Origin: an uncultured Candidatus Saccharibacteria bacterium
GTDB lineage: Bacteria; Patescibacteriota; Minisyncoccia; UBA6257; Colwellbacteraceae
Reading direction: 5' to 3'
NCBI GenBank assembly: GCA_964360065.1
Contig: CAYHTW010000002.1
Coordinates: 68,251 to 128,868, forward strand
Length of the DNA stretch: 60,618 bases
Made by a program: the position numbers and the translations under genes. The notes under the pieces are model-generated. The model searched no databases. It was not told where the DNA came from and saw only the letters and a program-made list of their open reading frames with translations. Below are positions 28,861 through 60,407 of the stretch, piece after piece. The stretch's first letter is position 1. The number at the start of each line of letters is the position of its first letter.

Positions 28861-28873
28861 ACTTTTTTGTTTG

Positions 28874-35876: not shown

Positions 35877-35913
35877 AATTTAAAGTATAAATTGTAAATT
35901 GTGAAATTGAAAA

Positions 35914-37650: not shown

Positions 37651-37672
37651 ATTTATTTTTTATTTTTCTTTG

Positions 37673-39928: not shown

Positions 39929-40276
39929 TTAGTAGAGTATGTGAATCAGGAAATTGACTGTTCCGATGACAATGGTTGCTAAAACGAGGGATCCAATGTC
40001 AGTGATTGTAACAGAGAGGAGGAGATAGTCAAGTAATTTCAGGGTGGCGAGGTTGACTAGGATGCTAGCGATGCCAAGCGTTATAAGTATAAGGGGGCTT
40101 AGCACTAGCTTAATGATGGGGCGGATAAAGACGTTGATAGCGCTTAGTACCAATGCCGTTATCAGTAAGTTCGTCATGTCTAAGGGCACATTGAATCCTG
40201 GGATGTATTTGGTCGCCACATAGAGCCCCGAGGCATTGCCGGCTACAATAAATATTGTTTTTGAGATTATTCCCAT
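39929..40276 (-). CDS. 4-TM phage-holin-family (DUF360/YvlD-like) membrane protein
   Basis: INVFIRPIIKLVLSPLILITLG..VN motif. Confidence 0.8.
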   Translation of the reverse strand: MGIISKTIFIVAGNASGLYVATKYIPGFNVPLDMTNLLITALVLSAINVFIRPIIKLVLSPLILITLGIASILVNLATLKLLDYLLLSVTITDIGSLVLATIVIGTVNFLIHILY

Positions 40277-43260: not shown

Positions 43261-43574
43261 CGCTAGACTAAGGACTAGCGTATTGGCTTGAGTGAGGCTA
43301 GCCAAAACATCTTTTTGTTTACTCTTGCGATAACACGCAGGAGGGTTATGTCTCACTCGCCAAAAGCGAGTTTTTTGTTTATTTCGTCCTATTTTCAAAC
43401 TAGCGGAGGGGATACGAAACAAAACAAAACTCTTAACAAGCGACTAGGGTTATCTATGCATATCAGCTCGCCGCCTTAACCTCACAAATGGCAAAAGGCA
43501 GCTGGTCGATGATATAGACAGTGGATAATCTCCAGACAAAAATAATTCTGAATAAAAGATTTAATAAAATAAAA
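43261..43574 (+). promoter_or_regulatory. Long multi-hairpin leader/intergenic region
   Basis: Stems at 43261-80, 43283-305, 43322-43, 43355-71 (followed by a T tract), 43368-432; GGTCG at 43504. Confidence 0.5.
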
Positions 43575-46500
43575 ATGAGTAAATTTATCTCGAAAGTTGC
43601 TTCAGCTGGGCTTACTGCCATAACTGTTGTCTCTCTTTCAGGGTTTGCTATGCCTCTTGCCGCTGCTCAAACGAGCGCCGACATTCAGGCACAGATTACA
43701 GCCCTGTTAGCTCAGATCAACGCTTTGCAGGCTCAATTGGGCACAGGTACTTCTACTGGCGCCGCCTACACCTTCACTAACAACCTCACAGTTGGTTCTA
43801 AAGGTGCAGACGTAACTGCCTTGCAGAATTACCTAGTTTCAACTGGTCACTTCACCCTTTCTGGTGGCGCGACTGGTTATTTCGGTTCCATAACTAAAGC
43901 CGCTGTAGCCGCTTGGCAAGCCGCCAACGGTGTTTCACCGGCTGCTGGTTACTTCGGATCCATTTCCAGGGCTAAGTACGTTTCGGTTACCGGAGCTGTA
44001 GTCACCGTACCTACTACTCCGACTACTCCGACTACACCGACAACTCCAGCTGTTCCATCTTCTGGTGTAGCTGTAGCGCTATCTTCTGACACCCCGGGAG
44101 CGGCAACATTGCCTGACGGTTCGGCCTACAATAAGGTTACTAAATTGAATCTTACTGCTGGTGCGAGCGGTGGCGATGCTAAAGTTACCGGACTTCGATT
44201 AACAAGAACCGGCTTCAGCTTGAACTCTGATTTCACTGGAGTAATGGTTTTTGATGCTAACGGCAATCGTCATGGCAATGTTGTCACGATTAGTGAGAGT
44301 AAAGCCTTGATAATGTTTACAGCTGATCCTATTACTGTTCCGGCAGGTCAAACTGTCGCAGTAACGGTCCAAGTGAACATTGATGCCGCGCAAACCACGA
44401 ACGGTACATTCGCTTTTGGTGTCGCTGCACCATCCGATGTATTCGTAGCTGATTCTGCTGCTATTTCCGGAACATTCCCAATTAATGGCAATATTTTTAG
44501 CGTCATTAATGGTGCTAACACTCTAGGAGCGGTAGACATTGACGCAGTAACAATTTCTGCGACAGCGAGAACTGTTGACCTAAATAACTTGGATTACCAA
44601 ATTTCTAAATTTAGGTTCTACGAGACTGGAGGCAAGGAGGATATCAAAATTACCTCCCTTCGCTTCTACAACAACGGCAACACCACCGACGCCGATCTGG
44701 CTAACTTAAAGCTTAAGAACGACGCTACTGGTGAAGTCTTGGCAACGGTGGCTGCGACTACCGGCAAGTATGTAACATTTAATTTGTCGTCAGGGCTAAC
44801 AGTCTTAAAGGGTCAAAACAAAACAGTCGCAATTTCTGCTGATGTTGTGAACGGTTCCACTAGGACCGCTCAATTCATAATTCAGAACGACTACGACGTT
44901 TCAGCCGTTGGCGTTTCAACGGGTGGTGGCCTTTTGTCGACTCACGCAACGAACCTAGCTGGCGATACAGCTGCTGGGTACCCAGTTGGTGATTTAACGA
45001 CAACTTACAACTCAATTACTGTCAATTCAGGCAGTTTGACTGTTGCTAAGGACAGCTCTTCGCCTTCCGGCAATGTCAGCCAAGGCCAGAACAACGTTGT
45101 TCTCGGCTATTGGAAAGTTGAAGCTACCGGCGAAGACATTGAGCTCCAAAAAGCCGACTTCAGCATCACAGGTTCAAGTGTGGCTGCTGATTTCAGCGGT
45201 TCGGTAAGCTTGATGATTGGCGATACGACCATCTACAGTACATCTACTCTAGCAGGCTTACTTGACGATGATGCTGCTGGTCTTGACCAGGTTGCTTTGA
45301 GTAATTACTACCTCATAAAATCTGGCACAAGCGTCTTAGTGAAAATGGTTGCTAACGTTTCAAGTTCAGCCACCAATAACGTGACGCTTATCGGCAACTT
45401 CGGCGATGCCTACTACAAGAGGGTGTCGTCTAACAACTACGCATCAGCCTCTGACGATGCATTTGTCACGGCCAACACTTTGACGGTTTCTACCGCGGCT
45501 TTGACAGTTGCTAAGAACTCCTCATACGGAGATCAGAACGTTGTAGGCGGCGGCGCGTTGAACAAGATTGGTTCATACGTTTTCCAAGCTGGTTCAGCGG
45601 AAGGCGTCAACATCTCTTCAGTAAATGTTGATATGTCTGCCATAACTGGTATGACCAACATGAAGTTAAGGAAGGTTAATTCCGATGGTTCCGAGACTCA
45701 AATCGGTTCCACCGTGACTGCGCCTTCTACAACCGACGACGCTAACAGCTTCTCTGTAGGTGGAACATTAAATGTCCCAGCTTCTGGAACTGTTGTGGTG
45801 AACGTCTATGTTGATATGTCGTCCGCAGCCGTTACGGTTAATACCGACATCGACGCTGCTGACGTAACAGCTTCCGGCCTTTCGAGCGGCACGGCTTTGA
45901 GCGGCAATACTCCAACTGCCCAGGTGGTTGGTCAAACTATTACCGCGAGAGCTAGCGGCACGCTCTTGGTTGAAACTGATACTTCTACTCCGGTAGAGGC
46001 AGTTGTTCGCGCTTCGGAATCTAACCGTGAACTCTTGAAAGTTAAATTCACTTCGCAATACGAAGCCGTTAACTTGACCAAGTTGGTATTTGGCAGCCGA
46101 AGAGGCAATGCCAACCTGAGCTCGGTTTCATTGACTGCTGGCGCCGTAACCGTAACTACTACTCCAATAAACGGTATTGCCACCTTTAGCGGATTAACCT
46201 TACAGGTTGCGAAAGACAACAATTTAGTGGTGAGTGTAAAAGGTGCATTTACTACTTCCGGCACGATGATTTCAGCTGAAGACGTAAGATTAGGTCTTGA
46301 CTCATTAGAATCTACCGGCGTTTCATCGGGTTCAACCATCTACGAATTGGCGAGAACCACGACTGGTACTGCTGGAGACATTGCTGCTGACGTTGCTACC
46401 GCCGTAACTGTAGGCTCTACCGAGGGCTTCGCGGTTGGCGATGTGGTACAGATCAACACAGCGCAAGGTGTAAGCTCATTCACTGGTGTTACGACTGCCG

Positions 46501-47927
46501 TTGGCAGCGCGACATCTTTGACCATCCGTGGTCCTAAGAACTTAGCTGATTGCGCGGGTGCAACTTGTTACGTAACTAAGTTAGCAACTCGCGAAGCTGT
46601 TACTTCTAAGACCACTGCAGTTACAGTGACCGATGTCACCGCTATCGCGATTGATGTCACTTCAACTCGCGGTTTCGCGGTTGGTGATGTCGTTAGATTA
46701 GACGGCGAATCAGGCGCGACCGACGATGGTGGTTTCTACACGGTTACAGCTGTAACCGATGGCGACACCATGTCTGTTATCGGTCTCGGTGAAGTTACAG
46801 CTAGTCCGACATTCGGTACTACTGCGACTGACCGTGTAACTAGAATGGCGACAACGAGTTCAACTCAAGTGAGAGCGCTTTCTACTATTACCGCGGTCAC
46901 CGCTTCAGCTCTTGAAGTAAATTCAACCGTTGGTTTTGCCGCTGGTGACTTGATAGTGGTGAACTCCACTATAGCTGTTACAACGAGAGTGGCCAGAATT
47001 TACACTGTGGCGGCGGTAACCGATGCTGATACTCTCAGTGTTATTGGTTCTGAAGGTCAGGTGGCCATTCCAGTAAACAGCTGGGTGACTAAGCTTTCTA
47101 CTACTCGCACCACAACCACTAACTTGGTAACTGACGATCTAGTTGCTGACACTGCGGGAACAATTACCGTTGTTTCAACTGCTGGATACAAGGTTGGCGA
47201 TGTAGTGATGCTAAATAGCACTGTTGCGGTGCCGGCTGCCCAAGTTGACACCGTCTACGTGGTTAGCGCGGTGCCTTCCTCGACTACTATTACCTTGATA
47301 GGTGAGGCTGCCCAGACCAACATTCCGGTTGGTAGCTACCTAACTATCTTGGCTTCATCCACAGGCAACGGTAAGCCTTACACGGTTCACGATGTTGAGC
47401 CGGTAATTACCCTAAACTCAGCATCTCCTGGAGCTTCAGGCACAGTCTCTGGTTCTACGAACCAAATTGTGGTTGTGTTTGATGTTTTGGCTTCGGGCGA
47501 TGTAGCCCTCACGCTTAAGGATGTAACCCTTACCCGTGGCGGTAACATTGGCACTAGAGTTGCTGTTACAGCTCAACCAAAGGTGTATGACTACACTTCT
47601 GGTAGCTTAGGAACACTACTCGGTACCGGTGCTAACTGGTCAGGGACAGCGGCTGGCTCTACCTCATTAGTAACCTTCGACACTCCTTACTCCGTCACTG
47701 CCGGTCAATCATTGAAGTTGGCGGTAACCGTAGATACTTCTGCGGCCATAGCTAACGACACCTTCCAGGTGTACATCAATAACACTGGCGGTTTTGCAGG
47801 TTTGTTTGGAGGACTAAGCTGGTACTACGTAGCTACGTCTCCATCCCCTGGCACGGAACCGACGAATGCTGCTCCTTCTACTCTCGCCGATACCTATCCG
47901 GTCTTCGGCAACACCTTGAGATATTAA
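43575..47927 (+). CDS. Large secreted surface (S-layer-like) protein: signal, coiled coil, PG-binding-like domain, beta-rich domains, 4 inserted repeats
   Basis: Start MSKFISKV at 43575; SADIQAQITALLAQINALQAQL; GSKGADVTALQNYL..GYFGSITKAAVAAWQ; T/A/V/S/G-rich; four VxSTxG(F/Y)xxGD repeats. Confidence 0.75.
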   Translation: MSKFISKVASAGLTAITVVSLSGFAMPLAAAQTSADIQAQITALLAQINALQAQLGTGTSTGAAYTFTNNLTVGSKGADVTALQNYLVSTGHFTLSGGATGYFGSITKAAVAAWQAANGVSPAAGYFGSISRAKYVSVTGAVVTVPTTPTTPTTPTTPAVPSSGVAVALSSDTPGAATLPDGSAYNKVTKLNLTAGASGGDAKVTGLRLTRTGFSLNSDFTGVMVFDANGNRHGNVVTISESKALIMFTADPITVPAGQTVAVTVQVNIDAAQTTNGTFAFGVAAPSDVFVADSAAISGTFPINGNIFSVINGANTLGAVDIDAVTISATARTVDLNNLDYQISKFRFYETGGKEDIKITSLRFYNNGNTTDADLANLKLKNDATGEVLATVAATTGKYVTFNLSSGLTVLKGQNKTVAISADVVNGSTRTAQFIIQNDYDVSAVGVSTGGGLLSTHATNLAGDTAAGYPVGDLTTTYNSITVNSGSLTVAKDSSSPSGNVSQGQNNVVLGYWKVEATGEDIELQKADFSITGSSVAADFSGSVSLMIGDTTIYSTSTLAGLLDDDAAGLDQVALSNYYLIKSGTSVLVKMVANVSSSATNNVTLIGNFGDAYYKRVSSNNYASASDDAFVTANTLTVSTAALTVAKNSSYGDQNVVGGGALNKIGSYVFQAGSAEGVNISSVNVDMSAITGMTNMKLRKVNSDGSETQIGSTVTAPSTTDDANSFSVGGTLNVPASGTVVVNVYVDMSSAAVTVNTDIDAADVTASGLSSGTALSGNTPTAQVVGQTITARASGTLLVETDTSTPVEAVVRASESNRELLKVKFTSQYEAVNLTKLVFGSRRGNANLSSVSLTAGAVTVTTTPINGIATFSGLTLQVAKDNNLVVSVKGAFTTSGTMISAEDVRLGLDSLESTGVSSGSTIYELARTTTGTAGDIAADVATAVTVGSTEGFAVGDVVQINTAQGVSSFTGVTTAVGSATSLTIRGPKNLADCAGATCYVTKLATREAVTSKTTAVTVTDVTAIAIDVTSTRGFAVGDVVRLDGESGATDDGGFYTVTAVTDGDTMSVIGLGEVTASPTFGTTATDRVTRMATTSSTQVRALSTITAVTASALEVNSTVGFAAGDLIVVNSTIAVTTRVARIYTVAAVTDADTLSVIGSEGQVAIPVNSWVTKLSTTRTTTTNLVTDDLVADTAGTITVVSTAGYKVGDVVMLNSTVAVPAAQVDTVYVVSAVPSSTTITLIGEAAQTNIPVGSYLTILASSTGNGKPYTVHDVEPVITLNSASPGASGTVSGSTNQIVVVFDVLASGDVALTLKDVTLTRGGNIGTRVAVTAQPKVYDYTSGSLGTLLGTGANWSGTAAGSTSLVTFDTPYSVTAGQSLKLAVTVDTSAAIANDTFQVYINNTGGFAGLFGGLSWYYVATSPSPGTEPTNAAPSTLADTYPVFGNTLRY

Positions 47928-48437: not shown

Positions 48438-50453
48438 ATGACACAAATAAAAAATAATTTAACAAAACTTAGTATTATATCAGGGCTTCTTGCCTTGATG
48501 GTTTCTGTAGTTGGCGTTCAATCGGCTTCTGCCGCATTGACGCTTAACGCAACAACAGTTTCAAGCGATGGTAACGCGGTGCTTACCACGTCTCTTACCG
48601 CTGGGACTATTGGTGTAGGTTTGGCTACTGGCACCGGAGCAATCACTCTCGGTTCTTCATCAGGCATACAGAACGTCCTTATCGGTAATGGTGCCGGCGC
48701 TGGTGTTCACGCCATCGCCAATGTGCAAGCAGAAGGTTCTCTATCTATTGGCGCAGGTATGATTGGCGGCACAGTTTCTGTTGGAGGCACGGCTCTTAAT
48801 ACTGGCACATTGACCTTCGGCCGTGGTACTGGAGCGCAGACAGTTGCGATTGCTTCTACCACAGGTGTTTCTACTACAAACATTGGAACAGCTGGCGCGG
48901 CTACCTCTGCTGTCACGGTTGGAAGCGCTGCTCAAACTGGCAACACCACTATTCGGGGAACCATTCTTTTGGACCCAGGAGCAGCTGCTAACGTCATCAC
49001 TATTGGTAAATCAGATGGCACCGGCACAATCACAGTCGGTTCCTCGTCCGGCACGCAGATAGTAGCGATCGGGGCAGGTGCCGGAGTTTCAACCGTCAAT
49101 GTTGCAAATGGCAATGGCGGTAATACTATCGCCGTAGGCACTGGTACAGGAATCGATACGATTAACATTGGTACGGGCGGCACTGCCGTAGATGTCATCA
49201 GTATCGGTACTGGCGCGGTTGGAAGCACAACCAGCATTGGTACCAATACCGGCACAACCACTCTTACTCTGGCTGCCGGTTCAGGCAACATTAACTTGAA
49301 TGCTACGACAGCTTCATTTGCCAAGGAAGTTGACCATACTCTGAGCGTTGTGACTTCAACAACAGCTAATACTGTTGGTGGCGCTCTGACTGTTTCTGCC
49401 GCCACTGGAGTTGGATCTGGCAACGGTGGCGCAGTAAACGTAACCGGCGGCGCCGCAGGCGCAACTGGCGCTGGTGGCGGGGTGGTTATTACCGGTGGCG
49501 CATCAACTACTGGCACAAGCGGAGTTGTAACCATACTATCAGGACTATCAGGAACTGCTGGAGCTTCTGGAGCAATGCGATTTGAAAGCGCAGCTGGCGT
49601 TGGAGCAACATTTGGATCTGGAACAGTGGCCATTAAATCGGGCGCTGGCATTACGACAGGCGCTCCTGGCGCTATAACTATACAAGGTGGCGCGGCAGGC
49701 ACTGACGCTATTGGTGGTAATGTGGCGATTACAGGTGGCGCGGCTGGAACAGCTTCCGCTGCCGCGAGAACTGGTGGCACAATTTTAGTGACAACCGGCG
49801 CTGGTTCTGCCGGTGCTGCTTCAACTACTTCAGGCGATGGTGGCGTATTAGCTCTTCTTGCTGGCAATGGAGGTATTGCTAATTTGACTTCTGGTACGGG
49901 TGGTATCGGAGGAGCAATCACCCTAACTGCTGGTAATGGTGGAGCTATAAACGGCGGCACAGCTTCTGGTGCGCCTGGCGCAATTACTATCCGGTCTGGT
50001 GATATGGGAACTACTACTGCAGGCGCAGGTGGTAACATCACTTTGAACATTGGTAAAAATGGAGCCACTGATGCAGTAGGTATTGCAACCGGTAAAGTTG
50101 TTATCTCGGGTAGTGCTGCGGGTGCGGCATCTCACTTGGCTTCAACTCAGACTGTTGCTCCGGTTGTAACTGGTGCTGTTACTACAAATGGTTGTACTAC
50201 TTGTACTGATATGAAGGGATTAATGACCTTCACTCCGACCGCAGCTGCGTCGGTAATTACATTGACCTTTAACAAAGCGTATGCAGCGGCACCTATATGC
50301 GTAGTTACGCCATCTAATGCCGCCGCAGCGTTAGATTTCTCTACAGCTACAATCAAGCCAGCTATAGCAACTTCAACGACCACTTTGACTATAACCCCTG
50401 CGGCCGCTTGGGTTGCCGATGCCAAGACAGTAAGCTACATCTGCGTTGAATAA
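48438..50453 (+). CDS. Secreted Gly/Thr/Ala-rich fibre-like adhesin
   Basis: Signal peptide ending ASA; repeats such as TGxITxG..GxQxVxI and GGxVxITxG; C-terminal Cys-containing domain ITLTFNKAYAAAPICVVTP. Confidence 0.65.
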   Translation: MTQIKNNLTKLSIISGLLALMVSVVGVQSASAALTLNATTVSSDGNAVLTTSLTAGTIGVGLATGTGAITLGSSSGIQNVLIGNGAGAGVHAIANVQAEGSLSIGAGMIGGTVSVGGTALNTGTLTFGRGTGAQTVAIASTTGVSTTNIGTAGAATSAVTVGSAAQTGNTTIRGTILLDPGAAANVITIGKSDGTGTITVGSSSGTQIVAIGAGAGVSTVNVANGNGGNTIAVGTGTGIDTINIGTGGTAVDVISIGTGAVGSTTSIGTNTGTTTLTLAAGSGNINLNATTASFAKEVDHTLSVVTSTTANTVGGALTVSAATGVGSGNGGAVNVTGGAAGATGAGGGVVITGGASTTGTSGVVTILSGLSGTAGASGAMRFESAAGVGATFGSGTVAIKSGAGITTGAPGAITIQGGAAGTDAIGGNVAITGGAAGTASAAARTGGTILVTTGAGSAGAASTTSGDGGVLALLAGNGGIANLTSGTGGIGGAITLTAGNGGAINGGTASGAPGAITIRSGDMGTTTAGAGGNITLNIGKNGATDAVGIATGKVVISGSAAGAASHLASTQTVAPVVTGAVTTNGCTTCTDMKGLMTFTPTAAASVITLTFNKAYAAAPICVVTPSNAAAALDFSTATIKPAIATSTTTLTITPAAAWVADAKTVSYICVE

Positions 50454-50564: not shown

Positions 50565-51728
50565 ATGACAAAAAATAAAATAAAATTAGGTTCATCAATT
50601 GCGTTGGTTCTAGGTCTCGTACTCGGAGCTCAAGCCGCGATGGCAGCAGACATTAATTTCAGCGTTGCTACAACCGTAACGATTGGCGCGACTAACTACA
50701 CCATTAGCGCGGCATCGGAGGCCACTTCTATGACTGTGGGCGCGAGTAGTCTTACAGTAACAGTTCCAGCATCAAGCACTTTCACGCTGGTTTCTTCCGA
50801 CAAGTTCCTCTTGAATAACGACCAGGTTGTAAGCCAACAGTGTACTGCTTCGCAGAATAGTCTTGCGCTTACTGGTTCTATAACCGTGGTAGTTACTCCT
50901 GATATTACTGCTGTTTGTACTGTTTCAAGTAGTGGCGGTACCAGCAGTGGAGGCGGTGGTGGTGGACCGATCACTGATACAACTCCGCCTACGAGCACTT
51001 CCATTGTAATTAATAGCGCCGCTGTAACTACTTCTACTACAGCTGTTACTTTGACCTTATCTGCGGTAGGCGCGTCAGACGTGATGATCTCCAACGACTC
51101 GGCCTTCACTGGGGGTACTTGGCTTGCGTATTCCACATCCAAGAATTGGACACTAACCACAGGAGACGGAGTAAAAACTGTTTACGCGAAGTTCAGGGAC
51201 GATGCTATGAATGTCTCAACCGCTGTTTCAGACACTATTACTTTGACGACTGGCGTGGCGGCTATTCCTGCAACTCCAGCAACTCCTGCTACACCAGTGG
51301 CTCCAGTGGTTCCGGTTGTCTTGAAAGCTTTGCCGTATCCGGTAGCTAAAACAACCGCGGAGATGCAGGCTAACTTAGCTGTCTTGCTTCAAAACTTGGC
51401 GGCATTACAGGCATCCCAGAAAGCTGCCACCCCTGCAACCCCGGCCACCCCGTCTGTAGGAAGCAGTATCCCTTCAGCAGGTTCATATAAGGTAAGTATT
51501 GTTCCAGGCTCAAAAGGGAGCGATGTTACTGCCCTACAGAACTTCTTGAAATTACAAGGAAAGGATATCTATCCTGAAGGTTTGGTAACTGGTTACTACG
51601 GCTCGCTTACAACCCAAGCTGTACAGAAATTCCAAGAGAAATATGGAATTGCCGCCCCCGGAGTTACCGGCTACGGCAATGTAGGTCCAAAAACTAGAGC
51701 CAAGATAAATTCACTACTTGGCCTATAA
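50565..51728 (+). CDS. Secreted protein: Ig-like domain plus C-terminal coiled-coil/PG-binding-like module
   Basis: Signal peptide AQAAMA; GDGVKTVYAKFRD domain; C-terminal GSKGSDVTALQNFL...GNVGPKTRAKINSLLGL. Confidence 0.75.
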   Translation: MTKNKIKLGSSIALVLGLVLGAQAAMAADINFSVATTVTIGATNYTISAASEATSMTVGASSLTVTVPASSTFTLVSSDKFLLNNDQVVSQQCTASQNSLALTGSITVVVTPDITAVCTVSSSGGTSSGGGGGGPITDTTPPTSTSIVINSAAVTTSTTAVTLTLSAVGASDVMISNDSAFTGGTWLAYSTSKNWTLTTGDGVKTVYAKFRDDAMNVSTAVSDTITLTTGVAAIPATPATPATPVAPVVPVVLKALPYPVAKTTAEMQANLAVLLQNLAALQASQKAATPATPATPSVGSSIPSAGSYKVSIVPGSKGSDVTALQNFLKLQGKDIYPEGLVTGYYGSLTTQAVQKFQEKYGIAAPGVTGYGNVGPKTRAKINSLLGL

Positions 51729-51788
51729 GCCCTCTTGTGGTGAGTCATATCGAATCCATTAGGTTTGTAATTTAAACTTAAATGTGGC

Positions 51789-51856
51789 ACGGTTTCATTA
51801 ATGAAACCGATGGAAAGTAATAATCTGCAAAAATCGCCCCTTCCAAAAGGGCGGTT
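51789..51856 (+). repeat. 68-bp direct repeat, copy 1 (20-bp palindrome plus terminator-like hairpin)
   Basis: ACGGTTTCATTAATGAAACCGATGGAAAGTAATAATCTGCAAAAATCGCCCCTTCCAAAAGGGCGGTT; here followed by a T tract. Confidence 0.95.
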
Positions 51857-51957
51857 TTTGTTTTAGTTCTGTCTTGTGGTGACTTGTCCTGAAGTTTCTC
51901 GAAAGAGCATAGCCGAACCATTTTGCATACTACTTATTAAAAGTTATAATGCGAGCC

Positions 51958-51975
51958 GGTTTCATTAATGAAACC
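51958..51975. repeat. Isolated 18-bp palindrome copy over a predicted transcription start
   Basis: GGTTTCATTAATGAAACC, 7 nt after TTGCAT-16-TATAAT (51923-51950). Confidence 0.9.
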
Positions 51976-52054
51976 AACGAATTGATGTTGAATTGATGCT
52001 CATTTTTTGAGTTTTTTGTTTGTTATTTTTATTGTCGTTTAGGCTCTCTATTGT

Positions 52055-52122
52055 ACGGTTTCATTAATGAAACCGATGGAAAGTAATAATCTGCAAAAAT
52101 CGCCCCTTCCAAAAGGGCGGTT
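52055..52122 (+). repeat. 68-bp direct repeat, copy 2
   Basis: Identical to copy 1. Confidence 0.95.
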
Positions 52123-52206
52123 GATGTTCGTCATTTGAGCTTGTTCAACATTGTCATCTAGAAGACAGTTCTATTAATGAAACCAAGGTGGTATAATTTA
52201 TATATT

Positions 52207-52587
52207 ATGAAAGTATCAAATAAAAAACTAACTGTGGTTTTAAGGAAACAGTCGTTGGAGAGATTATTAGATGAAATAAAGATGGTTAAAACTACTGCTG
52301 ACTTAGATAAGTTTTTTGGCAAGATTCTTACTAAAGACGAGAAAGAAATGATTTTAAGGAGAATAACCGTGGCGGATATGTTGGAGAGAAAGCTCAAATA
52401 TAGAGAAATAGAGGAATCTTTGAGTATCTCCCGTCTGACGATAAGCAAAGTTCGGGATATGCTTGCGAAAAGAGGTTATGGACGCAATCCAGGCAGAAAG
52501 AGAGTTTACTCCGGGGACGCGGATCATAAAAGGCGGAGACAAAAACCGCTTTTAGGTTATTACAAGGGAGCGAGGAGTATTATTTAG
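52207..52587 (+). CDS. TrpR/YerC-like helix-turn-helix protein
   Basis: ILTKDEKEMILRRITVADML...YREIEESLSISRLTISKV matches the TrpR/YerC pattern. Start set at ATG 52207 after TATAAT 52192-97; a 15/18 palindrome copy (52167-84) overlaps its promoter. Confidence 0.8.
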   Translation: MKVSNKKLTVVLRKQSLERLLDEIKMVKTTADLDKFFGKILTKDEKEMILRRITVADMLERKLKYREIEESLSISRLTISKVRDMLAKRGYGRNPGRKRVYSGDADHKRRRQKPLLGYYKGARSII

Positions 52588-52626
52588 ATTTATCTTGAGG
52601 TTTAATTGTCTAGTACTAGCTATTAG

Positions 52627-52694
52627 ACGGTTTCATTAATGAAACCGATGGAAAGTAATAATCTGCAAAAATCGCCCCTTCCAAAAGGGCGGTT
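52627..52694 (+). repeat. 68-bp direct repeat, copy 3
   Basis: Identical to copies 1 and 2. Confidence 0.95.
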
Positions 52695-52894: not shown

Positions 52895-55800
52895 ATGACG
52901 AGAAAAATTTTCACGTCGGCGAATATTAATATTATAAATAAGTCGTTAATTATATTCACAGCCTTAGCTGTGGTTTTGTGGTCAATAGGCGCAGGATTTT
53001 TTATTCCGGAGATCACGAGAGCAGCCGTTTCGCAAACAACTGCTCCGGCTGGTATGGCTGTAATGGGTCAGACCATCAAAGCGTCTTCTGTTGAAACTCC
53101 AGTCATAAAATTTCAGCTTACTGGCAATTCGGCCGATAACACAGTTACGCAGGTAACGGTTACCGTTGAAAGTACGGCCGGTCCGACTGTTTCGGGTGAT
53201 TTCGCCAGTTTGAAAGTATTTAAATCGGCGGACGGTATTTTTGACGGCGGCGATACTCTAGTCGGAACTCAAACAACAGTGAATGTTGGTTCGGCGACTA
53301 ACATTACTGTTGTTGAACCCCCATTGGGAGCTGCCGCATCTTGGTATATAGTAACCGCCGCAACTTCCGCAGGCGCGGGTAATGCCCATGCTTTTAAAGT
53401 TACTATGGCCGCGAACACAGCTGTCACAGTTGGCGGCGCTGGCGCAGGCTTGATTACCAGTTCAGCTCTTGCCGCTGGTTCAGTTCAGGCTTTAACTACT
53501 GATACAGTTGCCCCGACTCTTAACGTTAGTATGACTGGTCCGGCGACCGGTTCAACCAATGTTCCCGTGAGCACGTTCGTACACATGGGTTTTTCGGAAA
53601 GCCTTGACCAGTCAACTCTTATACCTGCTAACATCACTTTTACAAGCGGAGGCAGTCCGGTAGGCGCGGGTATCAAGCCTTTCCCTGATGGTTTTGATCT
53701 TACAACTTCAAACGCGCCAACATACACTACAGGAACTTCTTTTTCTAAGGCACTAAACACATCAACCGCTTTTTATCATATGTCAGGCACGAATGCCATT
53801 AATCCACAAGGAGCTTATGTAGCTCCGACACTTGGCGATATAGTTTTCTTTCAAAAAGATACTTTCCCGATGGATGTGGGAGTGATTACGAATGCTACGC
53901 TGGCCTCTGGCACGTTTGGCGTTAACGATTTCAATCTATTCCAAGGCCAACAAATCACTAAGTTCGGTACTATAGCGGCAACTGGTCTTCAAGGGTCAGC
54001 TACTACTCTCGTGGTGGGGGATATTGTTGTCGCGAATGTTTCGGCTAATCCGACCGATATGCGTTATAACTGGCATATTGTAACTGCTGGCACTGCCGTG
54101 AACGATGCGGCGCTTCGTTTTGATAGCGTAACAGCTGCGGCTCCAACCTTTGTTACTACGCCCAGCTCAAGGATATCTCGTATTACTCCTACCGCGACTA
54201 CGACAGTAAACGTAAGTAGCCAACTCTCCTCCATGACCTTTGTGGCGGGAGACCTCGTTTTCGCCAAAGTTACCGCAGGTGCTGACAATCTGAATCAGTA
54301 TGCGTGGCATACAGTAACAACTGGCGAGACCATCTCCGGCACGGTGCCGAGCGTTCTACGTCTTGATTGCGGCGCTACTTGTACGGTGCCCGTTACTTTT
54401 ACCCCTTCAACCCAGGTTAGCAAACTTTCTGCCGCCGCAACCGGCGCGGTGACCGATACCACTACCGCTCTGTCCTTCGGCGATATCGTGATGGCGAAAA
54501 CCACCTTGAATGCGTCAAATAACGGTAACTATAACTTCCATATGGTTAGCGCGGGCGCGACCGGCGCTTCGGCTGCTGGTTTACGTTTTGACAATGCTTC
54601 GACGAACCTTAGTCCTTCGGTGACTTATGTAGCAACCGCGGGAGTTGGTGTCAAGGACTCCGCGGGAAACCCATTGGCCGCCCCAGCAACTATCAGCTTT
54701 ACGACTGGTTCAAACACCGGTACCGTTACCACGCCTCCGTTTGTTCAATCTTCGACTCCACAAGGAGGAAGTGTGACTTTCCCGATCGGCGTGCCGATCT
54801 CGCTGCAGTTTTCGGTGCCGATGGCTAACACAGGCGGAGGGTCAGTACTCTCCAGTTCTAATATAGGACTTTTCACCAATGTTAATGGCGCTCCTGGCGT
54901 CGCTGTTACGGCCGCGAACGGCTACGATTCTGTCACCAATACTGTAACTGTTACTCCCAGCGCCGTTCTCACTGCGGCTACGAGTTTTATAGTTAAAATT
55001 TTTGGTAGTACGACTAGCAGTACTGGCACGTTTGTGTCGCCGTATCAATTATTCTTCACGACTGCCTCCGGCGCGGCTGACACGGCGAGACCAACAATTA
55101 CGGGAGTTTTCCCGTCTCCTGGAGCAACAGGCGTTGTGCGTCCAGTGGGAGATATTAGTATCGGTTTTTCGGAAGATATGAACGCGGCGACCATTAGCGG
55201 CACCACGATAACAATCAATAACAGCATTACAGGGACCGTTACTTATAATGCTCAGCAACGCGCCGCGCACTTTGCGCCAAATATTCCGTTAGCGCAAAAC
55301 ACCGCTTATACAGTAACGGTGGGTACGGCGGTTACGGACCTTTCTGGTAATGGCTTAGCGGGTAATGGTGGCGTGGCTAACGCGGTAACGATCGCGGGGA
55401 GTTCGTCCGCTTATGTCTTTAGTTTTACCACGGCAAATACGGCTAACGAGACTGTAAAACCTACGGTTCAATCCGCGAATGCCGACAATTTCGGTGTAGC
55501 TGTAACTTTTTCAGAACCAATTAAATCCGGCGGCGGACCGGCTGCGGCTGATAATATTGCTAACTACACATTAGAGAGTCCCGTTGGAACTTCAATTTCC
55601 CTGGGTGGGAAAACCGTAACCTATGATGGTCCAACGATGACGGCAAGGATCACCGGGCTATCATTACAGAATGGGGCTTTGTTCAAAATAACGGCTAGTA
55701 ACATTATGCAAGACTTGGCTGGTAATAGTATGGAAACAGTCTCAAGTGCTAATGTTTCCCAAGCCACAGTCGCGAGTTCCACTATGACCGGAGGCCTTCT

Positions 55801-58800
55801 TGGTCCCGGCGGCGGCATGATGCAAACCGGAGGTATGATGGGCATGAGCCCGATTCGAGTTAGTCCTATGAACCGATTAGCTGGGGCAACTTCTGGTTAC
55901 TTCGTGGAAATGCCGGTTACTACATCCATTCCTTTGGGTGCCTCAATTGTGCTTACTTTCCCCACGGGGTTTGATGTAACAAACGCCGCGGCTATGACTG
56001 CTGTCACGGAGAGTCCGGCTAATAGTGATATTAATGGACCGGCTACCGGTGTTGTTACTATTGCCTCAACTGCTGTTAATATTTCAGCTAGAACTATCAC
56101 GATAGTTACCGGCGGCGCGGAAACAGGGGCCAATACTTTCTTGCGTTTTGACCTAAAGACAATTGTAAACTCAACTGTTCCTAATAGCGCTGGCTATACA
56201 GTAGACATTAAGACGAAAACCGCGGCCAATGTCATCCTAGAAACGCAAACCTCAAGTTTCTTCTTTCTAGGTCAGGCGGGAACGAATACTCTTACTGTTA
56301 CTGTATTTAACGATAATGGCGAGGGTGGCGTTACCGCAGGAGATGGTATTAAGAGTGGTACCGAGCCGGGAATCGCAAGCGCCACAGTTTTCCTCTTTAG
56401 TATGGCTGTCGGTGGCCAAAGTGGAACCACTGATGTAAACGGTGTGGCTACATTCCCAAGCCTTGTAAATGGGACTGACTATATGGTTGGTATTGAACCG
56501 TCAAGCGTTACCGCGGGAGGGTTTTCCTTCAATTCCGCGCATCAACCGCTGTCAATTTCAGGCAACACCGCAAAGAGCTTCGGTTTAAGAGCGGCTCCTC
56601 ACACCATTGCAGGTACGATCACGGGTCCTATAAATACCAAAGTTGATGTATTTGCGAGCGGCTTCAATGGCTACACATCGGTCACAGTAGACACTGGCGC
56701 AGGTGGGAGCGTGGCTTACAGCTTGCCGGCGCAGGCGAGTACCACCTATCGAGTGGGAGTTTCGCCTTCTATGCCTAGGACCTTTATGCAACCAGGATCA
56801 GCCATGCCTCCGCCGCCAACTTTCACCTTTATGCCTCCTCCGATGATTGAAGTGGCTGTCGCGGCCGCTAACGTGACGGGCAAGAACTTTGCCCTTACCG
56901 CGACTGATAAAACTATCGCTGGCACAGTGAAGGATTCTGCCGGAGTCGGGATAAATAAAGCCCAGGTTTTTGCCAGGCCGGTTCAGACTTCTAGTGATGG
57001 TACTAACACAGGTTTCGGCACGGGTGGAGAAACTGATACCCAGGGCAACTTTAGCTTACGTGTAACTCCTGGAGTGTATCTTGTTGGCGTCTTTAAGCCC
57101 GGTATGCCTAATGTCCAAGAAAAGCAGATTACAGTTGCCACAGTTAATACTCCTGCGACACTGGCCTTTGTAATTGATGCCTCAACTAGCCTTACGATTA
57201 GCGGCAAGGTGACTGATGATGCGGGGAACGCCGTTGCTTACGCTGGCGTAGGTGGCAGAAGGGTAACATCCACTACCAATACGACAAGTTTAGGCGGTGA
57301 TTCTGGCAACTTTGTTGGCGGCCCGACTGATGCTAACGGTGCTTATACTCTTTATGTAACCGCTGGCACATGGGTGATAGAAGCTTATGCTCCGGGGTTT
57401 GGAAGGTTAGGTACTAAAACCGTTACTGTTGTTGCTGGTACCAGCTTGACGGGTCAGGACTTCTCGGCGGCGACTTTGAGCGTTGGTACGATTACTGGTC
57501 AGGCTACTAAAGCGACCGTAGCTCAACAAGGAGTTATGGTACGCGCAGATGGTGCTAATGGAGGCAACATGGCTATTACGGATGTAAGCGGTAATTACAC
57601 TTTGAAAGTTCCCGCAGGCACCGGTTATACGATTAATTGTTATTTCCCGGGCGTGGGTGAAGCTACTCCACTTACGGGTGTCACGGTGACATCTGGTGCC
57701 ACGAGTTCCGGAAATAATTGTTCGTTAGCGGCTCCAATTACCGTTACAGTGAACGTTACGAATGGCACAAGTGGGATTACTGGCGCGTTTGTGGACGCAA
57801 GGGACACGAACGGCCGGGGCAATGGTACGAATAGTTATACGACTTCTGGGGCGAATGCTGTCTATGTGTTAACGCTCTCACCAGGAACCTACACTGTGCG
57901 CGCGGGACATCCTTCGTACGGAATGCTTGGTTCAACCTTAAGCGTTAGTACCACACAGACTATTACTTACACGGCTGCGGCTGGCGCGACATTCGCGGTG
58001 ACTGGCACAGCTACTGGTGGTGGGGTTGCTTTAAGCGGCGCTTGGGTATCTGTTACTGGTACGTCTACCGGTCAGACAAATATTATTCATGTTGGTGGAC
58101 AGACTGCCTCTAACGGTACGTTTTCTATCAGCGTTCCAAACGGTACTTATAAGGTTCGTGTCGACAAACCGGGATATAAATCTCCTACTGAAACAGGAGT
58201 TACGGTCGCGGGCGCTACTATTTCGGTTGGCACGATTGCTCTCTCGGCCGCAACACTTTCTATTACCGGTAAGGCTACTCTTGATGCTGTGGGCGTAAGT
58301 GGCGCCTTTGTGGACGCGACTGATGGAGCAGGAGGGTTTACAGTTGATCAAACTGATGCGAATGGCAATTATACTCTCGCGGTTAACGCTGGGAACTGGA
58401 CAGTCCGGGCTCACAGCCAGGGTTACGATGGTGGCCCGCTCTTAGTCGCTGTTGGCGCAACAAACGTGAGTGGCCAAGACGTTGCTCTAAGCGCCATATC
58501 TGGTTTCACAGTGCAGGCCGAAAAACAGGAGACAGTTACTCCGAGTTCTGGTGGTTTCTTCACTAATACAAACATCGGCGCTGGTTTCAAGTTGAATATT
58601 CCAGCGAACGCTTTGGGTACCGGCGCAAACGCCAGCACTGTTAAAACCCAAATTAATACTGCTATGCCTAACCCACCGACTGGTTCCATCTTAAAGAAGA
58701 ACGCGGTATCAATCTCGGCGGTAGATGCTGCTGGCGCCCTGATTAAGACCTTGAGTGATGCTGTGACAGTGGTTATTCCTTACACGGAAAGCGATATCCC

Positions 58801-59827
58801 AAGTGGTATTGCCGAAACAAGTTTGGTAATCGGTGTTTGGAACGAGGCTACCTCAAACTACGACACCCTGCCTACCACAGTGGACACAACCGCGAATACA
58901 CTCACGGCTACCGTGTCTCACTTCTCTGATTTTGCTCCATTGGTGCCTACCAATCCAACAGCTACGGCAACCCCGACCGGATTCACGGTTGGAGGTGCAA
59001 CATCGAGTACACTACTGCTTAGTTGGACTTTGGTATCCGGGGCGAGTGGTTACGATATATATAGAAGTGCTACAACGAGTGGCACTTATGCCCGTTTGGG
59101 TTCGGAACCAACAGTTTCTAGCGGATCAACAGTTACCTACACCGATACAGGTCTTAGCGCATACACCGCTTATTACTACAAGATCTCTTCGGTGAGTACG
59201 GGAAATGAATCAGCAGCGACTGAATACTCTTCGGGTACGACTCTAAACACTGCAAGTTCTGGTGGTGGTGGTAGCAGCAGTGGTGGTGGAGGTGGCGGAT
59301 ACGCAGCGGTATCAACTCCTGCCGCGACCACTACTGTCACCCCCGTAGTTCCAGTAACTTCAGCAGTACCGACTACAACTCCTGCGGTTCCAGCGACCCC
59401 TGTAACTCCAGCCGTCTTGAAAGCTTTACCATACCCGTCGGCCAAAACAACTGTGGAAATGCAGGCTAACCTAACTGTCTTACTAGGAAACTTAGCAGCG
59501 TTGCAGGCACAACAGAAAGCTGCAACTCTCGCAACACCAGTCACTCCATCAACAGACGCATCAGTGCCTCCAGCTGGTTCTTACAAAGTAAGCATTGCTC
59601 CTAATTCCAAAGGGAATGATGTTACCGCCCTGCAGAACTTCTTGAAGTCACAAGGCGCGGATGTCTATCCCGAAGGGCTTGTTACTGGTTACTTCGGCAA
59701 CTTAACCAAGGCCGCTGTTGGCAGATTCCAGATTAAGCAGGGAATTGTTACCAGTACGAGTGATGTAGGTTACGGCAATGTAGGTCCAAAGACTCGTGCC
59801 AAAATCAACTCATTATTAGGTTTATAA
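52895..59827 (+). CDS. Giant (2310 aa) multi-domain surface protein: Big_5-like Ig domains, carboxypeptidase-regulatory-like repeats, FN3, C-terminal PG-binding-like module
   Basis: DT.AP/RP...F(S)E motifs x4, ISGKVTD..G..TD.NG.YTL repeats, FN3 LLLSW..GYDIYRS..YTDTGL..YYYKI, C-terminus nearly matching 50565..51728. Confidence 0.8.
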   Translation: MTRKIFTSANINIINKSLIIFTALAVVLWSIGAGFFIPEITRAAVSQTTAPAGMAVMGQTIKASSVETPVIKFQLTGNSADNTVTQVTVTVESTAGPTVSGDFASLKVFKSADGIFDGGDTLVGTQTTVNVGSATNITVVEPPLGAAASWYIVTAATSAGAGNAHAFKVTMAANTAVTVGGAGAGLITSSALAAGSVQALTTDTVAPTLNVSMTGPATGSTNVPVSTFVHMGFSESLDQSTLIPANITFTSGGSPVGAGIKPFPDGFDLTTSNAPTYTTGTSFSKALNTSTAFYHMSGTNAINPQGAYVAPTLGDIVFFQKDTFPMDVGVITNATLASGTFGVNDFNLFQGQQITKFGTIAATGLQGSATTLVVGDIVVANVSANPTDMRYNWHIVTAGTAVNDAALRFDSVTAAAPTFVTTPSSRISRITPTATTTVNVSSQLSSMTFVAGDLVFAKVTAGADNLNQYAWHTVTTGETISGTVPSVLRLDCGATCTVPVTFTPSTQVSKLSAAATGAVTDTTTALSFGDIVMAKTTLNASNNGNYNFHMVSAGATGASAAGLRFDNASTNLSPSVTYVATAGVGVKDSAGNPLAAPATISFTTGSNTGTVTTPPFVQSSTPQGGSVTFPIGVPISLQFSVPMANTGGGSVLSSSNIGLFTNVNGAPGVAVTAANGYDSVTNTVTVTPSAVLTAATSFIVKIFGSTTSSTGTFVSPYQLFFTTASGAADTARPTITGVFPSPGATGVVRPVGDISIGFSEDMNAATISGTTITINNSITGTVTYNAQQRAAHFAPNIPLAQNTAYTVTVGTAVTDLSGNGLAGNGGVANAVTIAGSSSAYVFSFTTANTANETVKPTVQSANADNFGVAVTFSEPIKSGGGPAAADNIANYTLESPVGTSISLGGKTVTYDGPTMTARITGLSLQNGALFKITASNIMQDLAGNSMETVSSANVSQATVASSTMTGGLLGPGGGMMQTGGMMGMSPIRVSPMNRLAGATSGYFVEMPVTTSIPLGASIVLTFPTGFDVTNAAAMTAVTESPANSDINGPATGVVTIASTAVNISARTITIVTGGAETGANTFLRFDLKTIVNSTVPNSAGYTVDIKTKTAANVILETQTSSFFFLGQAGTNTLTVTVFNDNGEGGVTAGDGIKSGTEPGIASATVFLFSMAVGGQSGTTDVNGVATFPSLVNGTDYMVGIEPSSVTAGGFSFNSAHQPLSISGNTAKSFGLRAAPHTIAGTITGPINTKVDVFASGFNGYTSVTVDTGAGGSVAYSLPAQASTTYRVGVSPSMPRTFMQPGSAMPPPPTFTFMPPPMIEVAVAAANVTGKNFALTATDKTIAGTVKDSAGVGINKAQVFARPVQTSSDGTNTGFGTGGETDTQGNFSLRVTPGVYLVGVFKPGMPNVQEKQITVATVNTPATLAFVIDASTSLTISGKVTDDAGNAVAYAGVGGRRVTSTTNTTSLGGDSGNFVGGPTDANGAYTLYVTAGTWVIEAYAPGFGRLGTKTVTVVAGTSLTGQDFSAATLSVGTITGQATKATVAQQGVMVRADGANGGNMAITDVSGNYTLKVPAGTGYTINCYFPGVGEATPLTGVTVTSGATSSGNNCSLAAPITVTVNVTNGTSGITGAFVDARDTNGRGNGTNSYTTSGANAVYVLTLSPGTYTVRAGHPSYGMLGSTLSVSTTQTITYTAAAGATFAVTGTATGGGVALSGAWVSVTGTSTGQTNIIHVGGQTASNGTFSISVPNGTYKVRVDKPGYKSPTETGVTVAGATISVGTIALSAATLSITGKATLDAVGVSGAFVDATDGAGGFTVDQTDANGNYTLAVNAGNWTVRAHSQGYDGGPLLVAVGATNVSGQDVALSAISGFTVQAEKQETVTPSSGGFFTNTNIGAGFKLNIPANALGTGANASTVKTQINTAMPNPPTGSILKKNAVSISAVDAAGALIKTLSDAVTVVIPYTESDIPSGIAETSLVIGVWNEATSNYDTLPTTVDTTANTLTATVSHFSDFAPLVPTNPTATATPTGFTVGGATSSTLLLSWTLVSGASGYDIYRSATTSGTYARLGSEPTVSSGSTVTYTDTGLSAYTAYYYKISSVSTGNESAATEYSSGTTLNTASSGGGGSSSGGGGGGYAAVSTPAATTTVTPVVPVTSAVPTTTPAVPATPVTPAVLKALPYPSAKTTVEMQANLTVLLGNLAALQAQQKAATLATPVTPSTDASVPPAGSYKVSIAPNSKGNDVTALQNFLKSQGADVYPEGLVTGYFGNLTKAAVGRFQIKQGIVTSTSDVGYGNVGPKTRAKINSLLGL

Positions 59828-60014: not shown

Positions 60015-60407
60015 ATGTCTAAAAAAATAAAAATCATACTTTTAGTATTAGCGTTGGTTGTGGTCGGTGGGTCAATCTTTATCGCCACTTTGTCAGTATC
60101 TAAGCCAGATGCTTTGCGTAGCGCTTTTAACAGCGCCTTTAGTAAACCCTATTCCGTTGTCTATCTTACAACTGGAGAAATATATGTTGGCCATCTTTCC
60201 ACTTTCCCTAAACTCGTCCTAACGGATTCTTATATTTTGCAAGTAGCGACTGACTCCAAGGATCCCGCGAAAAAGACTTTCCAGCTTGCGCCGCTTAAAG
60301 AGTCCCTATGGTCACCAGAGAGAATCTATCTGAATAATGACCAGGTAATCTTTACCGCCCCAGTTAGCGCCGACAGCCAGGTAGCCAAAACTCTAAATAA
60401 AAAGTAG
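60015..60407 (+). CDS. Membrane-anchored hypothetical protein (small beta/Sm-like domain)
   Basis: N-terminal TM, YSVVYLTTGEIYVGHL..LTDSYILQ. Confidence 0.7.
   Translation: MSKKIKIILLVLALVVVGGSIFIATLSVSKPDALRSAFNSAFSKPYSVVYLTTGEIYVGHLSTFPKLVLTDSYILQVATDSKDPAKKTFQLAPLKESLWSPERIYLNNDQVIFTAPVSADSQVAKTLNKK

Follow-up and report, generated by a model that had tools for sequence, protein, structure and literature searches.

A TrpR/YerC-type repressor gene flanked by copies of its predicted operator in a groundwater bacterium of the candidate phyla radiation, with palindromes that appear to mark breakpoints of module exchange

Why should a small gene for a TrpR-like repressor lie among three identical repeats, each with a perfect palindrome at its head? 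The question is raised by a 60,618-nt stretch of contig CAYHTW010000002.1 (here called the window, whose positions are used throughout), which comes from a groundwater, Paceibacteria-like member of the candidate phyla radiation (CPR). A first-pass annotation of this DNA had offered three readings of the array: an autoregulated repressor with several operators that acts as a switch or insulator for a neighbouring adhesin gene, a repeat-bounded cassette array in which the repressor is deleted or shuffled, and a minimal mobile unit. We consider that the array is probably the autoregulatory region of a CPR-specific branch of the TrpR/YerC(HisR) repressors, that the 68-nt repeats are not cassette borders, and that the palindromes have served as breakpoints in the evolution of the region.

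The three 68-nt units (51789-51856, 52055-52122 and 52627-52694) are base-for-base identical and separated by 198 and 504 nt, exactly as first claimed; like the other parts described between 50565 and 60407, they lie on the forward strand. Each unit consists, in this order, of a 20-bp perfect palindrome CGGTTTCATTAATGAAACCG (51790-51809, 52056-52075 and 52628-52647), a middle stretch and a hairpin CGCCCCTTCCAAAAGGGCG (51835-51853 in unit 1). The 18-mer GGTTTCATTAATGAAACC occurs in four exact copies, including one outside the units at 51958-51975, and in a fifth copy that matches at 15 of 18 positions (52167-52184). All five, as many as had been proposed for the array, fall within 51791-52646, and the 18-mer is absent from the rest of the 60.6-kb window at up to three mismatches, with 0.02 occurrences expected from shuffles.

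The gene within the array encodes a Trp_repressor family protein, in agreement with its first description as TrpR-like. It spans 52207-52587 and specifies 126 aa beginning with MKVSNKK (ATG at 52207), not the 136-aa open reading frame (ORF) from 52177, and residues 15-88 score 48.5 bits with Pfam Trp_repressor (PF01371; cut-off 27, E 9.6e-13). Among the NCBIfam models TIGR02531 (YerC/YecD) scores best, at 40.9 bits, narrowly below its cut-off of 42.2, while the TrpR equivalog TIGR01321 reaches 29.1 bits against a cut-off of 67.25, and the protein is not an orthologue of Escherichia coli TrpR. The closest sequence matches in the Protein Data Bank are 3KOR, 3FRW and 3G1C, which are of the YerC/HisR type. 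An AlphaFold 2 model has five helices between residues 10 and 89, with predicted local distance difference test (pLDDT) values of 75-88, and a Foldseek search with it returned E. coli TrpR (1TRO, 6F7F) at the top together with the same three YerC-like structures (probability 1.0; template-modelling scores of 0.56-0.73 on the target, about 0.6-0.7 for E. coli TrpR), albeit with E-values of only ~0.02 for this small domain. Taken together, the matches place the protein nearest to the YerC/HisR branch within the Trp_repressor family.

HisR and TrpR proteins are ~100 aa long (PMC9413887), whereas the branch described here adds a conserved basic tail of ~35 aa (residues 90-126, 52474-52587; RGYGRNP..RKR.YS...PLLGYYKGARSII), in which the motifs RG(Y/F)G, P and YKGARSI are kept down to 36% protein identity. 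The tail, where pLDDT falls below 50, is probably disordered, and it could contact DNA, drive oligomerization or bind a partner. Given that a profile search yields ~50 clusters (at 50% identity) with E<=1e-10, the branch appears to be small but real; those of its sources that could be named or identified are Paceibacterota, Colwellbacteria, Liptonbacteria and the Parcubacteria group. In full-text searches of a paper library we found no TrpR/YerC-type regulator or operator described for CPR bacteria or Patescibacteria.

What the palindromes are is best seen from the relatives of this locus, which were found by exact-protein look-up or by 18-mer scans of genomes and metagenomes and are designated by L-numbers. 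A palindrome flanks the homologue in every lineage examined (at least 15 lineages, with 36-100% protein identity), and it occupies two fixed places, one over the -35/spacer region of the promoter and the other beginning 2-57 nt past the stop codon. Between the end of the proximal dyad and a TATAAT-like -10 there are 4-7 nt in most lineages, as judged from exact offsets at 14 loci and from sequence readings at further loci; the exceptions are L117, with a gap of ~15 nt, and L119, in which no -10 was assigned. Among homologues with 79-100% protein identity the dyad is GGTTTCATTAATGAAACC or a symmetric one- to two-base variant of it, such as AGTTTC...GAAACT. Distant lineages use other dyads, which are the same or nearly so on both sides of the gene: GCTTTCATTAATGAAAGC in Colwellbacteria (L042) and L115 (56% and 57% protein identity), GGTTTCTTTAAAGAAACC in L113 (54%), GGTTCCATTAATGGAACC in L114 (57%), TGGTCTCATTAATGAGACCA in L116 (44%), CGGTTCTAATATTAGAACCG in L117 (45%), TGGTCTCCGATTGGAGACCA in L118 (40%) and GATATACTCAAGTATATC in L119 (38%).

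A strict scripted test asked for the same perfect palindrome with 8-nt arms at most 250 nt upstream and at most 200 nt downstream of a gene. The TrpR-like genes passed in 12 of 15 cases and the control ORFs in 3 of 149; the three control passes represent the same sites viewed from overlapping or neighbouring ORFs, and the three TrpR-like genes that failed have one-mismatch dyads on both sides. Because the dyad shifts symmetrically along with the protein from lineage to lineage, the palindrome is most likely the cognate operator and the gene most likely autorepressed. Since the site is symmetric, co-varies with the protein and is fixed in its place at the promoter, outside the proximal transcript, the pattern appears to be the signature of a dimeric repressor's operator and of autorepression, and not that of an RNA stem or a generic repeat.

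Two predicted promoters fit this arrangement. The distal one, P1 (51922-51950; sigma-70-like, TTTGCA/TTGCAT-17-TATAAT), ends 7 nt before the perfect palindrome at 51958-51975, which covers its predicted +1, and both the promoter and its arrangement with the palindrome are kept in L010 and L109. The proximal one, P2, has the extended -10 TGGTATAAT (52189-52197), in which TATAAT (52192-52197) is preceded by TG; the proximal operator AGTTCTATTAATGAAACC (52167-52184), which is the 15/18 copy, lies over its -35/spacer and ends 7 nt before TATAAT. A TGGTATAAT or TGGTAAAAT box follows the palindrome likewise in L010, L041, L113, L114 and L115. Both promoter overlaps pointed out in the first-pass annotation, that of the perfect copy with a +1 and that of the imperfect copy with the repressor-gene promoter, are thereby borne out.

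The units also have features that would matter in RNA. A full intrinsic terminator (A-tract, stem and T-tract), which is bidirectional, is present in unit 1 only, where the hairpin and the T-run at 51854-51866 form the predicted terminator of the upstream gene for a 387-aa protein; in units 2 and 3 the identity ends at GGGCGGTT and the T-run is missing. Unit 1 folds into two stable hairpins (-27.9 kcal/mol, z -5.7), and palindromes 2 and 3 could pair as a 19-20-bp duplex in the P1 transcript (fold z -4.3). An element that acts as RNA, whether a 3'-end stabilizer or processing site, a long-range 5'-3' pairing of palindromes or a small RNA that extends from P1 as far as unit 2, would make use of this folding, and it would also suit the post-stop dyad, which would be transcribed and is extended to a 14-bp stem in L118, and the location of the unit at gene 3' ends in the window, L062, L079 and L096. 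We nevertheless think an RNA-level explanation very unlikely, as the proximal dyad lies upstream of the -10 and outside the P2 transcript and yet is placed more strictly than any other copy, the inner bases do not vary within a lineage group and change in step with the protein, as is usual for a protein site, the short ORFs of the P1 transcript are not conserved, and a scan of 50-54 kb against Rfam at E<=1 gave no relevant match. On the Rfam result the unit was also rejected as a known RNA, and it was rejected as coding sequence on finding that the 18-23-codon ORFs from the ATG after the palindrome differ from copy to copy and that their stops are placed differently in L010.

The second of the two fixed places, after the stop codon, requires closer consideration, as it might simply belong to the next gene. 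The post-stop dyad is retained where the next gene is convergent (Colwellbacteria L042, L117 and L118), and where the next gene is co-directional, as with the 127-aa gene of L055 and L072, the dyad lies ~95-130 nt upstream of its -10. An operator of the following gene was rejected as the general case on both counts, and because the dyad is kept beside convergent genes and far from the next -10 we infer that it is an intrinsic auxiliary operator of the repressor gene. The same comparison separates the parts of the first of the earlier readings: an autoregulated repressor with several operators is strongly supported by the conserved position relative to the -10 and by the co-variation of site and protein, but a switch or insulator for the 2310-aa adhesin is unlikely, since the post-stop operator is kept whatever follows it, including convergent genes, the next gene in most close relatives is one for a 127-aa membrane protein, and the adhesin is found there only in the window and in the sister lineage L120/L121.

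Several known systems are useful for comparison. YerC of Bacillus subtilis is HisR, whose repression depends on histidine; it recognizes a 20-bp palindrome and in many cases is autoregulated (PMC9413887). It belongs to the same Pfam family as the window protein, and its own gene often has a site in front, as the window gene does with its predicted operators. The HisR consensus cacTTTAnnnnnnTAAAgtg has no more than its length and its TTT-N8-AAA layout in common with the dyad of the window lineage; operator sequences in the branch described here differ from those of HisR and vary by lineage. The HisR regulon is one of his biosynthesis or transport genes, whereas here no his genes are near any of the sites, and a his or trp biosynthesis pathway is not there for the protein to control. 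HisR sites have been described only in front of hisR (PMC9413887), while loci of the window branch have a conserved second operator past the stop codon and as many as six sites. E. coli TrpR has the same fold and, as a dimer on a dyad of ~18-20 bp over its promoter, exerts negative autoregulation, which is what we predict for the window protein; its operator (of the TGTACTAGTTAACTAGTAC type) is unrelated to the window dyad, and the multi-site bracket is what sets the window locus apart.

At lac (O1-O2), gal (OE-OI) and deo, where repression involves looping, and with roadblock terminators, a strong promoter operator is accompanied by an identical second one hundreds of base pairs downstream. 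This resemblance provides a working model for the window locus, with the difference that the second site here lies beyond a whole short gene and not inside it. In such a model, built from the comparative results and from TrpR/HisR precedent, a protein dimer would bind each dyad and would repress both promoters, the proximal site serving for P2 and the palindrome over the +1 for P1, and the post-stop site would cooperate with the upstream sites. It might do so in a repression loop around the gene, with ~460 bp (410-500 bp) between the post-stop and promoter operators, or as a protein roadblock that shields a dose-sensitive gene from read-through and from convergent or antisense transcription. 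By family precedent the co-repressor would be an amino acid such as tryptophan or histidine. The conservation of the post-stop operator points to looping or insulation as a selected feature; it is kept down to 36% protein identity and is unreported in the described members of the family (PMC9413887), and the bracket formed by the same operator before and right after the gene throughout the subfamily appears to be a new element.

A number of points weigh against this interpretation. All of its functional claims rest on comparative inference, and the precedent for mechanism and ligand is approximate only, given that TIGR02531 scores below its cut-off and the TrpR equivalog far below. Confidence in the AlphaFold 2 model is moderate (mean pLDDT 67.5, with the tail below 50). 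The spacings between sites (86-167 bp upstream, 411-500 bp across the gene) show no consistent phase, and with such heterogeneity the idea of constant helical phasing was dropped; the looping or roadblock role of the post-stop operator is thus far a putative one. Lastly, the identity of three 68-nt copies could reflect selection on the module, for instance as RNA, and not recency.

If the palindromes are operators, how did three identical units arise? An alignment of the downstream flank (A2) finds a 43-47-nt insertion, comprising the middle and the hairpin, in the window only; it is absent from L069, L055 and L072. Its insertion point is immediately after the palindrome and GATG, and unit 3 (52627-52694) thus appears to be the ancestral post-stop operator (52628-52647) with a lineage-specific module inserted beside it. 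Unit 1 (51789-51856) likewise consists of an operator (51790-51809) and a 47-nt module that includes the hairpin at 51835-51853, and unit 2 (52055-52122) of an operator (52056-52075) and the same module without the T-run. GATG directly follows unit 2 and repeats the first four nucleotides of the module, which begins GATGG; operators are generally followed by GATG(G). The sister lineage L120/L121, from the same aquifer, has 86% protein identity, the same left neighbour and the same adhesin; it carries six palindromes (four upstream and two downstream) and no identical 68-mers. Its only unit-like copy follows the upstream gene and differs from the window units in the hairpin, and therefore the identical copies would have arisen or been homogenized after the split from L120/L121. 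The 68-mers thus look like the recent local spread of a site-plus-terminator module, and not like functional cassette borders. The 47-nt middle-plus-terminator module may have been copied beside existing operators, seeded by the palindrome and by microhomology, likely through recombination, gene conversion or template switching.

A triplication of this kind could also come from mis-joined repeats, the general risk with repeated sequence being all that speaks for such an artefact. The protein is carried by five contigs, of which three were read (L036-L038); they derive from three other samples in the European Nucleotide Archive, all from Hainich well H52, were assembled separately, and have the same three units with 0-2 single-nucleotide polymorphisms in the repeat zone, and a comparison tool flagged the remaining two as similar places. 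Since the arrangement recurs in separately assembled contigs of other H52 samples, the triplication is real. In addition, the flanks of the three units are unique and, assuming ordinary read lengths, single short reads could span a 68-nt repeat, so that mis-assembly, a doubt attached to the array when it was first described, is scarcely credible. The agreement of the H52 assemblies in arrangement is to be read with the reservation that consensus assemblies hide minor alleles.

Rearrangement is nevertheless apparent when relatives are compared. L010, L062 and L109 are ~97% identical over 190 nt to the right of one dyad and have unrelated modules to its left (P1 directly, a unit with a tail, or P1-palindrome-75 nt-unit-tail), the hairpin-plus-middle module is inverted against the proximal operator in L069 and L072, and in L079 and L047 a variant unit whose middle and hairpin are separated by a 26-nt box lies at the 3' end of a P-type ATPase gene. 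Between near-identical strains the junctions at palindromes comprise insertions, deletions and one inversion. Shuffling in the course of evolution is therefore real, with the palindromes, as repeats that are at once direct and inverted, for breakpoints where small promoter and terminator modules are gained, lost and flipped. In no case is it the repressor gene that varies. The visible role of palindromic operators as breakpoints of module shuffling would be a second new element of the locus.

These observations bear directly on the second earlier reading, of which the insertion, deletion and inversion of palindrome-bounded segments stands, both between lineages and between near-identical strains, while phase variation through loss or shuffling of the repressor is not supported: the varying segment is never the repressor gene and the population assemblies that were read agree, and hence there is no evidence of programmed phase variation. 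In its fullest form this reading is a shufflon-like recombination switch, with the palindromes as sites of crossover, where frequent inversion or deletion of segments bearing P1, terminators or the promoter of the repressor would make the repressor and, through it, the neighbouring surface proteins phase-variable. One would expect of such a switch that alternative modules join exactly at palindromes in otherwise ~97% identical strains and that the palindrome-middle-hairpin unit occurs in both orientations, as is found; the array lies between surface-protein genes in the window and L120, and contigs of relatives break within it (L010, L062 and L029/L011). We still regard it as unlikely, as the variable pieces and their orientation differ between lineages and not within one, the three population assemblies read share one arrangement (the other two being flagged as similar), and in distant lineages the bracket has housekeeping neighbours (lysS/dnaG in L116, dinB in L118), for which phase variation would make little sense. 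Nor was a recombinase found: the genes examined between 27.5 kb and the end of the window, when scanned against Pfam and NCBIfam, proved to encode housekeeping and surface proteins only, with no recombinase, integrase, transposase or invertase among them.

On those scans an integron, a transposon or an invertase was rejected. Integron cassettes resemble the locus in that a short gene lies between repeated palindromic elements; the window gene, however, has two promoter-like sites of its own and no integrase among the scanned genes, its repeat is a simple perfect dyad plus terminator in place of the R''-L''/L'-R' structure of attC, and its bracket is conserved vertically with the gene.

The likeness to REPtrons and bacterial interspersed mosaic elements (BIMEs), which are built of repetitive extragenic palindromes (REPs), is closer, with a gene bracketed by identical palindromes, mosaics in both orientations, and copies at gene 3' ends and other intergenic sites in relatives. 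Could the gene and its flanking palindromes then move together as a minimal selfish cassette, its mini-modules dispersing like REPs and BIMEs? The gene is always bracketed by identical dyads, its genomic context differs among distant lineages, and dyads with shared flanking modules occur at other loci (L015, L022, L032, L077 and L079). The RNase J-trpS junction, moreover, exists in three states: empty in the window, with a 37-nt gap (35877-35913), occupied by a palindrome-68 nt-palindrome insert in the relative DASRUQ01 (L015:4651-4878), and occupied in Colwellbacteria (L042:4361-6115) by the TrpR-like gene with four palindromes and two small ORFs. In an unrelated organism (L068) a gene for a REP-associated tyrosine transposase (RAYT) of the IS200-like kind is flanked by hairpins that contain the same 18-mer. 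We consider a mobile cassette quite unlikely all the same. What the dyads bracket is a gene for a helix-turn-helix repressor and not for a Y1 HUH transposase, and the 126-aa product consists of that domain and a disordered tail, nuclease and recombinase domains being absent. Each locus has a single copy, with no second in 60 kb, and the neighbourhood is stable in the 79-100% identity group (the 127-aa gene and a PG_binding gene). Copies number a handful and not hundreds and lie at fixed promoter positions, and the few stand-alone sites per relative genome are regulon-like rather than REP-like; no target-site duplications were seen, bar possibly GATG at unit 2. The minimal mobile unit of the earlier readings is accordingly unlikely, there being no recombinase or transposase in the scanned genes, one copy per locus, and stable synteny among the 79-100% relatives.

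The arrangement in L068 (640-1530; also L007:7468 and L023:1946) deserves description for its own sake, in that the Y1 transposase gene is both flanked and interrupted by REP-like hairpins (cgtcgt-GGTTTCATTAATGAAACC-acgacaa and variants). Although this is a textbook REPtron layout, the hairpins are probably a coincident palindrome family.

There remains a rather unlikely extension of the autoregulatory explanation, in which the protein bridges the sites at both ends of its own gene and elsewhere, and in doing so both regulates and gathers the palindromes, whose modules would then be exchanged, inverted and seeded at new promoters, among them those of trpS, leuS, response regulators and surface proteins. 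If this were true, it would amount to a recombinase-free, regulator-guided rewiring of a small regulon in reduced CPR genomes, and perhaps to varied surface-protein expression too.

Returning to the autoregulatory reading as such, what else might the repressor control? In the relative DASRUQ01, a metagenome-assembled genome with ~4 intergenic palindrome loci, stand-alone palindromes lie upstream of trpS (a pair, L015), of leuS (L032) and of a gene for a CheY-like response regulator (L022). Metagenomic relatives provide a homologue of the L022 site (L093), a palindrome with a CheY-like gene that adjoins a pilin-like (N_methyl) gene (L082), one upstream of a PG_binding_1 surface-protein gene (L046) and others at the 3' ends of PG_binding_1 genes (L062 and L096). 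The Colwellbacteria have the repressor gene itself between RNase J and trpS-ileS, and the block around it shows synteny with 31-40 kb of the window. It had been remarked at first that no trp genes are present; this needs amendment, for trpS is present on the reverse strand (34896-35876), with no palindrome there in the window, and it is beside trpS that relatives carry an upstream palindrome pair (L015) or the gene (L042). From these relatives trpS, leuS, CheY-like response regulators and PG-binding surface proteins form a candidate regulon, and tryptophan or general amino-acid status as the signal is at most a lead.

Such a regulon would take in aminoacyl-tRNA synthetases, CheY-like regulators by a pilin-like gene and surface proteins, whose functions are central to an episymbiotic, auxotrophic lifestyle. 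The locus offers a testable regulator-operator pair, with lineage-specific dyads as a natural specificity series, and a view of how operator arrays evolve by the shuffling of modules at palindromic operators. The more dramatic proposals of a cassette array, an adhesin phase switch or a mobile unit are correspondingly lowered, and the locus is most likely a real and well-defined autoregulatory one of a CPR-specific TrpR/YerC-type repressor, with the 68-bp triplication a recent by-product of module copying.

The neighbouring genes record a history of their own. To the left lies the gene for the 387-aa surface protein with a C-terminal PG_binding_1 domain (50565-51728), which is the left neighbour also in L062, L109 and L120, and to the right that for the 2310-aa adhesin-like protein (52895-59827; Big_5, CarboxypepD_reg, fn3 and PG_binding_1). 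Both proteins end in PG_binding_1 and have ~130 C-terminal residues in common, in keeping with the original remark that the array lies between two surface genes sharing an anchor. The adhesin gene is an insertion between the downstream operator and the 127/130-aa gene that is common only to the window and L120/L121; in most close relatives the gene next to the downstream operator is that for the 127-aa membrane protein, whose window orthologue encodes a 130-aa membrane protein (60015-60407; 61% identity, 2e-55). The adhesin as a conserved target was rejected, its position being a sub-lineage insertion. Between the 387-aa gene and the array, 51735-51788 holds a remnant of the 3' end of a second anchor gene (..attaggtttgtaa) and the conserved 5' flank AAATGTGGCA of unit 1; the remnant is present also in L109, and the homologous sequence in L062 is a real gene end. 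It is a trace of recombination among paralogous PG_binding_1 anchor genes.

Remnant sequence past the 387-aa stop (..TCGAATCCATTAGGTTTGTAA) extends over 51735-51788 and 51874-51885 and includes a box, CTTGTGGTGAGTCATATCGAATCCA, that recurs inside the unit variant in L079 (2126-2152) and in L047. Large secreted or surface proteins are clustered in this part of the window, with four genes at 43521-47927, 48438-50453, 50565-51728 and 52895-59827; one encodes a 671-aa Gly/Ala/Thr-rich protein with no Pfam match, and the other three products carry PG_binding_1.

Exact copies of the 18-mer were also encountered in many places that are chance or coding matches, for example in Enterococcus (L005 and L013) and in coding ORFs (L033 and L035), and others are the tips of unrelated long hairpins; neither kind was used as evidence. 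Perfect palindromes allow just 4^9 distinct centres, so that a few coincident repeat families are expected. The half-site GTTTCA resembles parS (TGTTTCAC/GTGAAACA), but no ParB-type protein is involved here. In three related contigs the exact 18-mer falls within a conserved ~400-aa ORF (..GFINET..; L031:4241, L065:5241 and L111:853), where it may reflect coincidence in coding sequence or an intragenic site. Other Patescibacteria genomes have a conserved, multi-copy intergenic long hairpin of ~130 nt with GGTTTCATTAATGAAACC exactly at its tip (L009:4238-4375, L012:3973-4110 and L020:2563-2700, all in OY970216.1, L008:3010-3147 and L021:4228-4365), which has 37 predicted pairs, four of them with compensatory changes, and matches nothing in Rfam; a TrpR-like homologue is also encoded in one of the genomes concerned, DAIDAY01, and the dyad that belongs to it differs in two central positions. 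A near-perfect palindrome of ~86 nt (GATTCTTCGGCACATTGCCTCAGAATCAAGAAAA-18-mer-TTTTCTTGA...) is present in metagenome contigs (L084:2316, L095:880, L097:108, L106:3225 and L110:105), and in L097, from Hainich H43, it adjoins a consensus TTGACA-16-TATAAT promoter. Elsewhere the window contains ordinary features, such as a tmRNA gene (28873-29191; tag ATQRVAVPSFALA) and a tRNA-Leu(CAG) gene (37672-37754), and a 115-aa ORF (39929-40276) that matches Phage_holin_4_2 (PF04020, 4.7e-16) lies among housekeeping genes.

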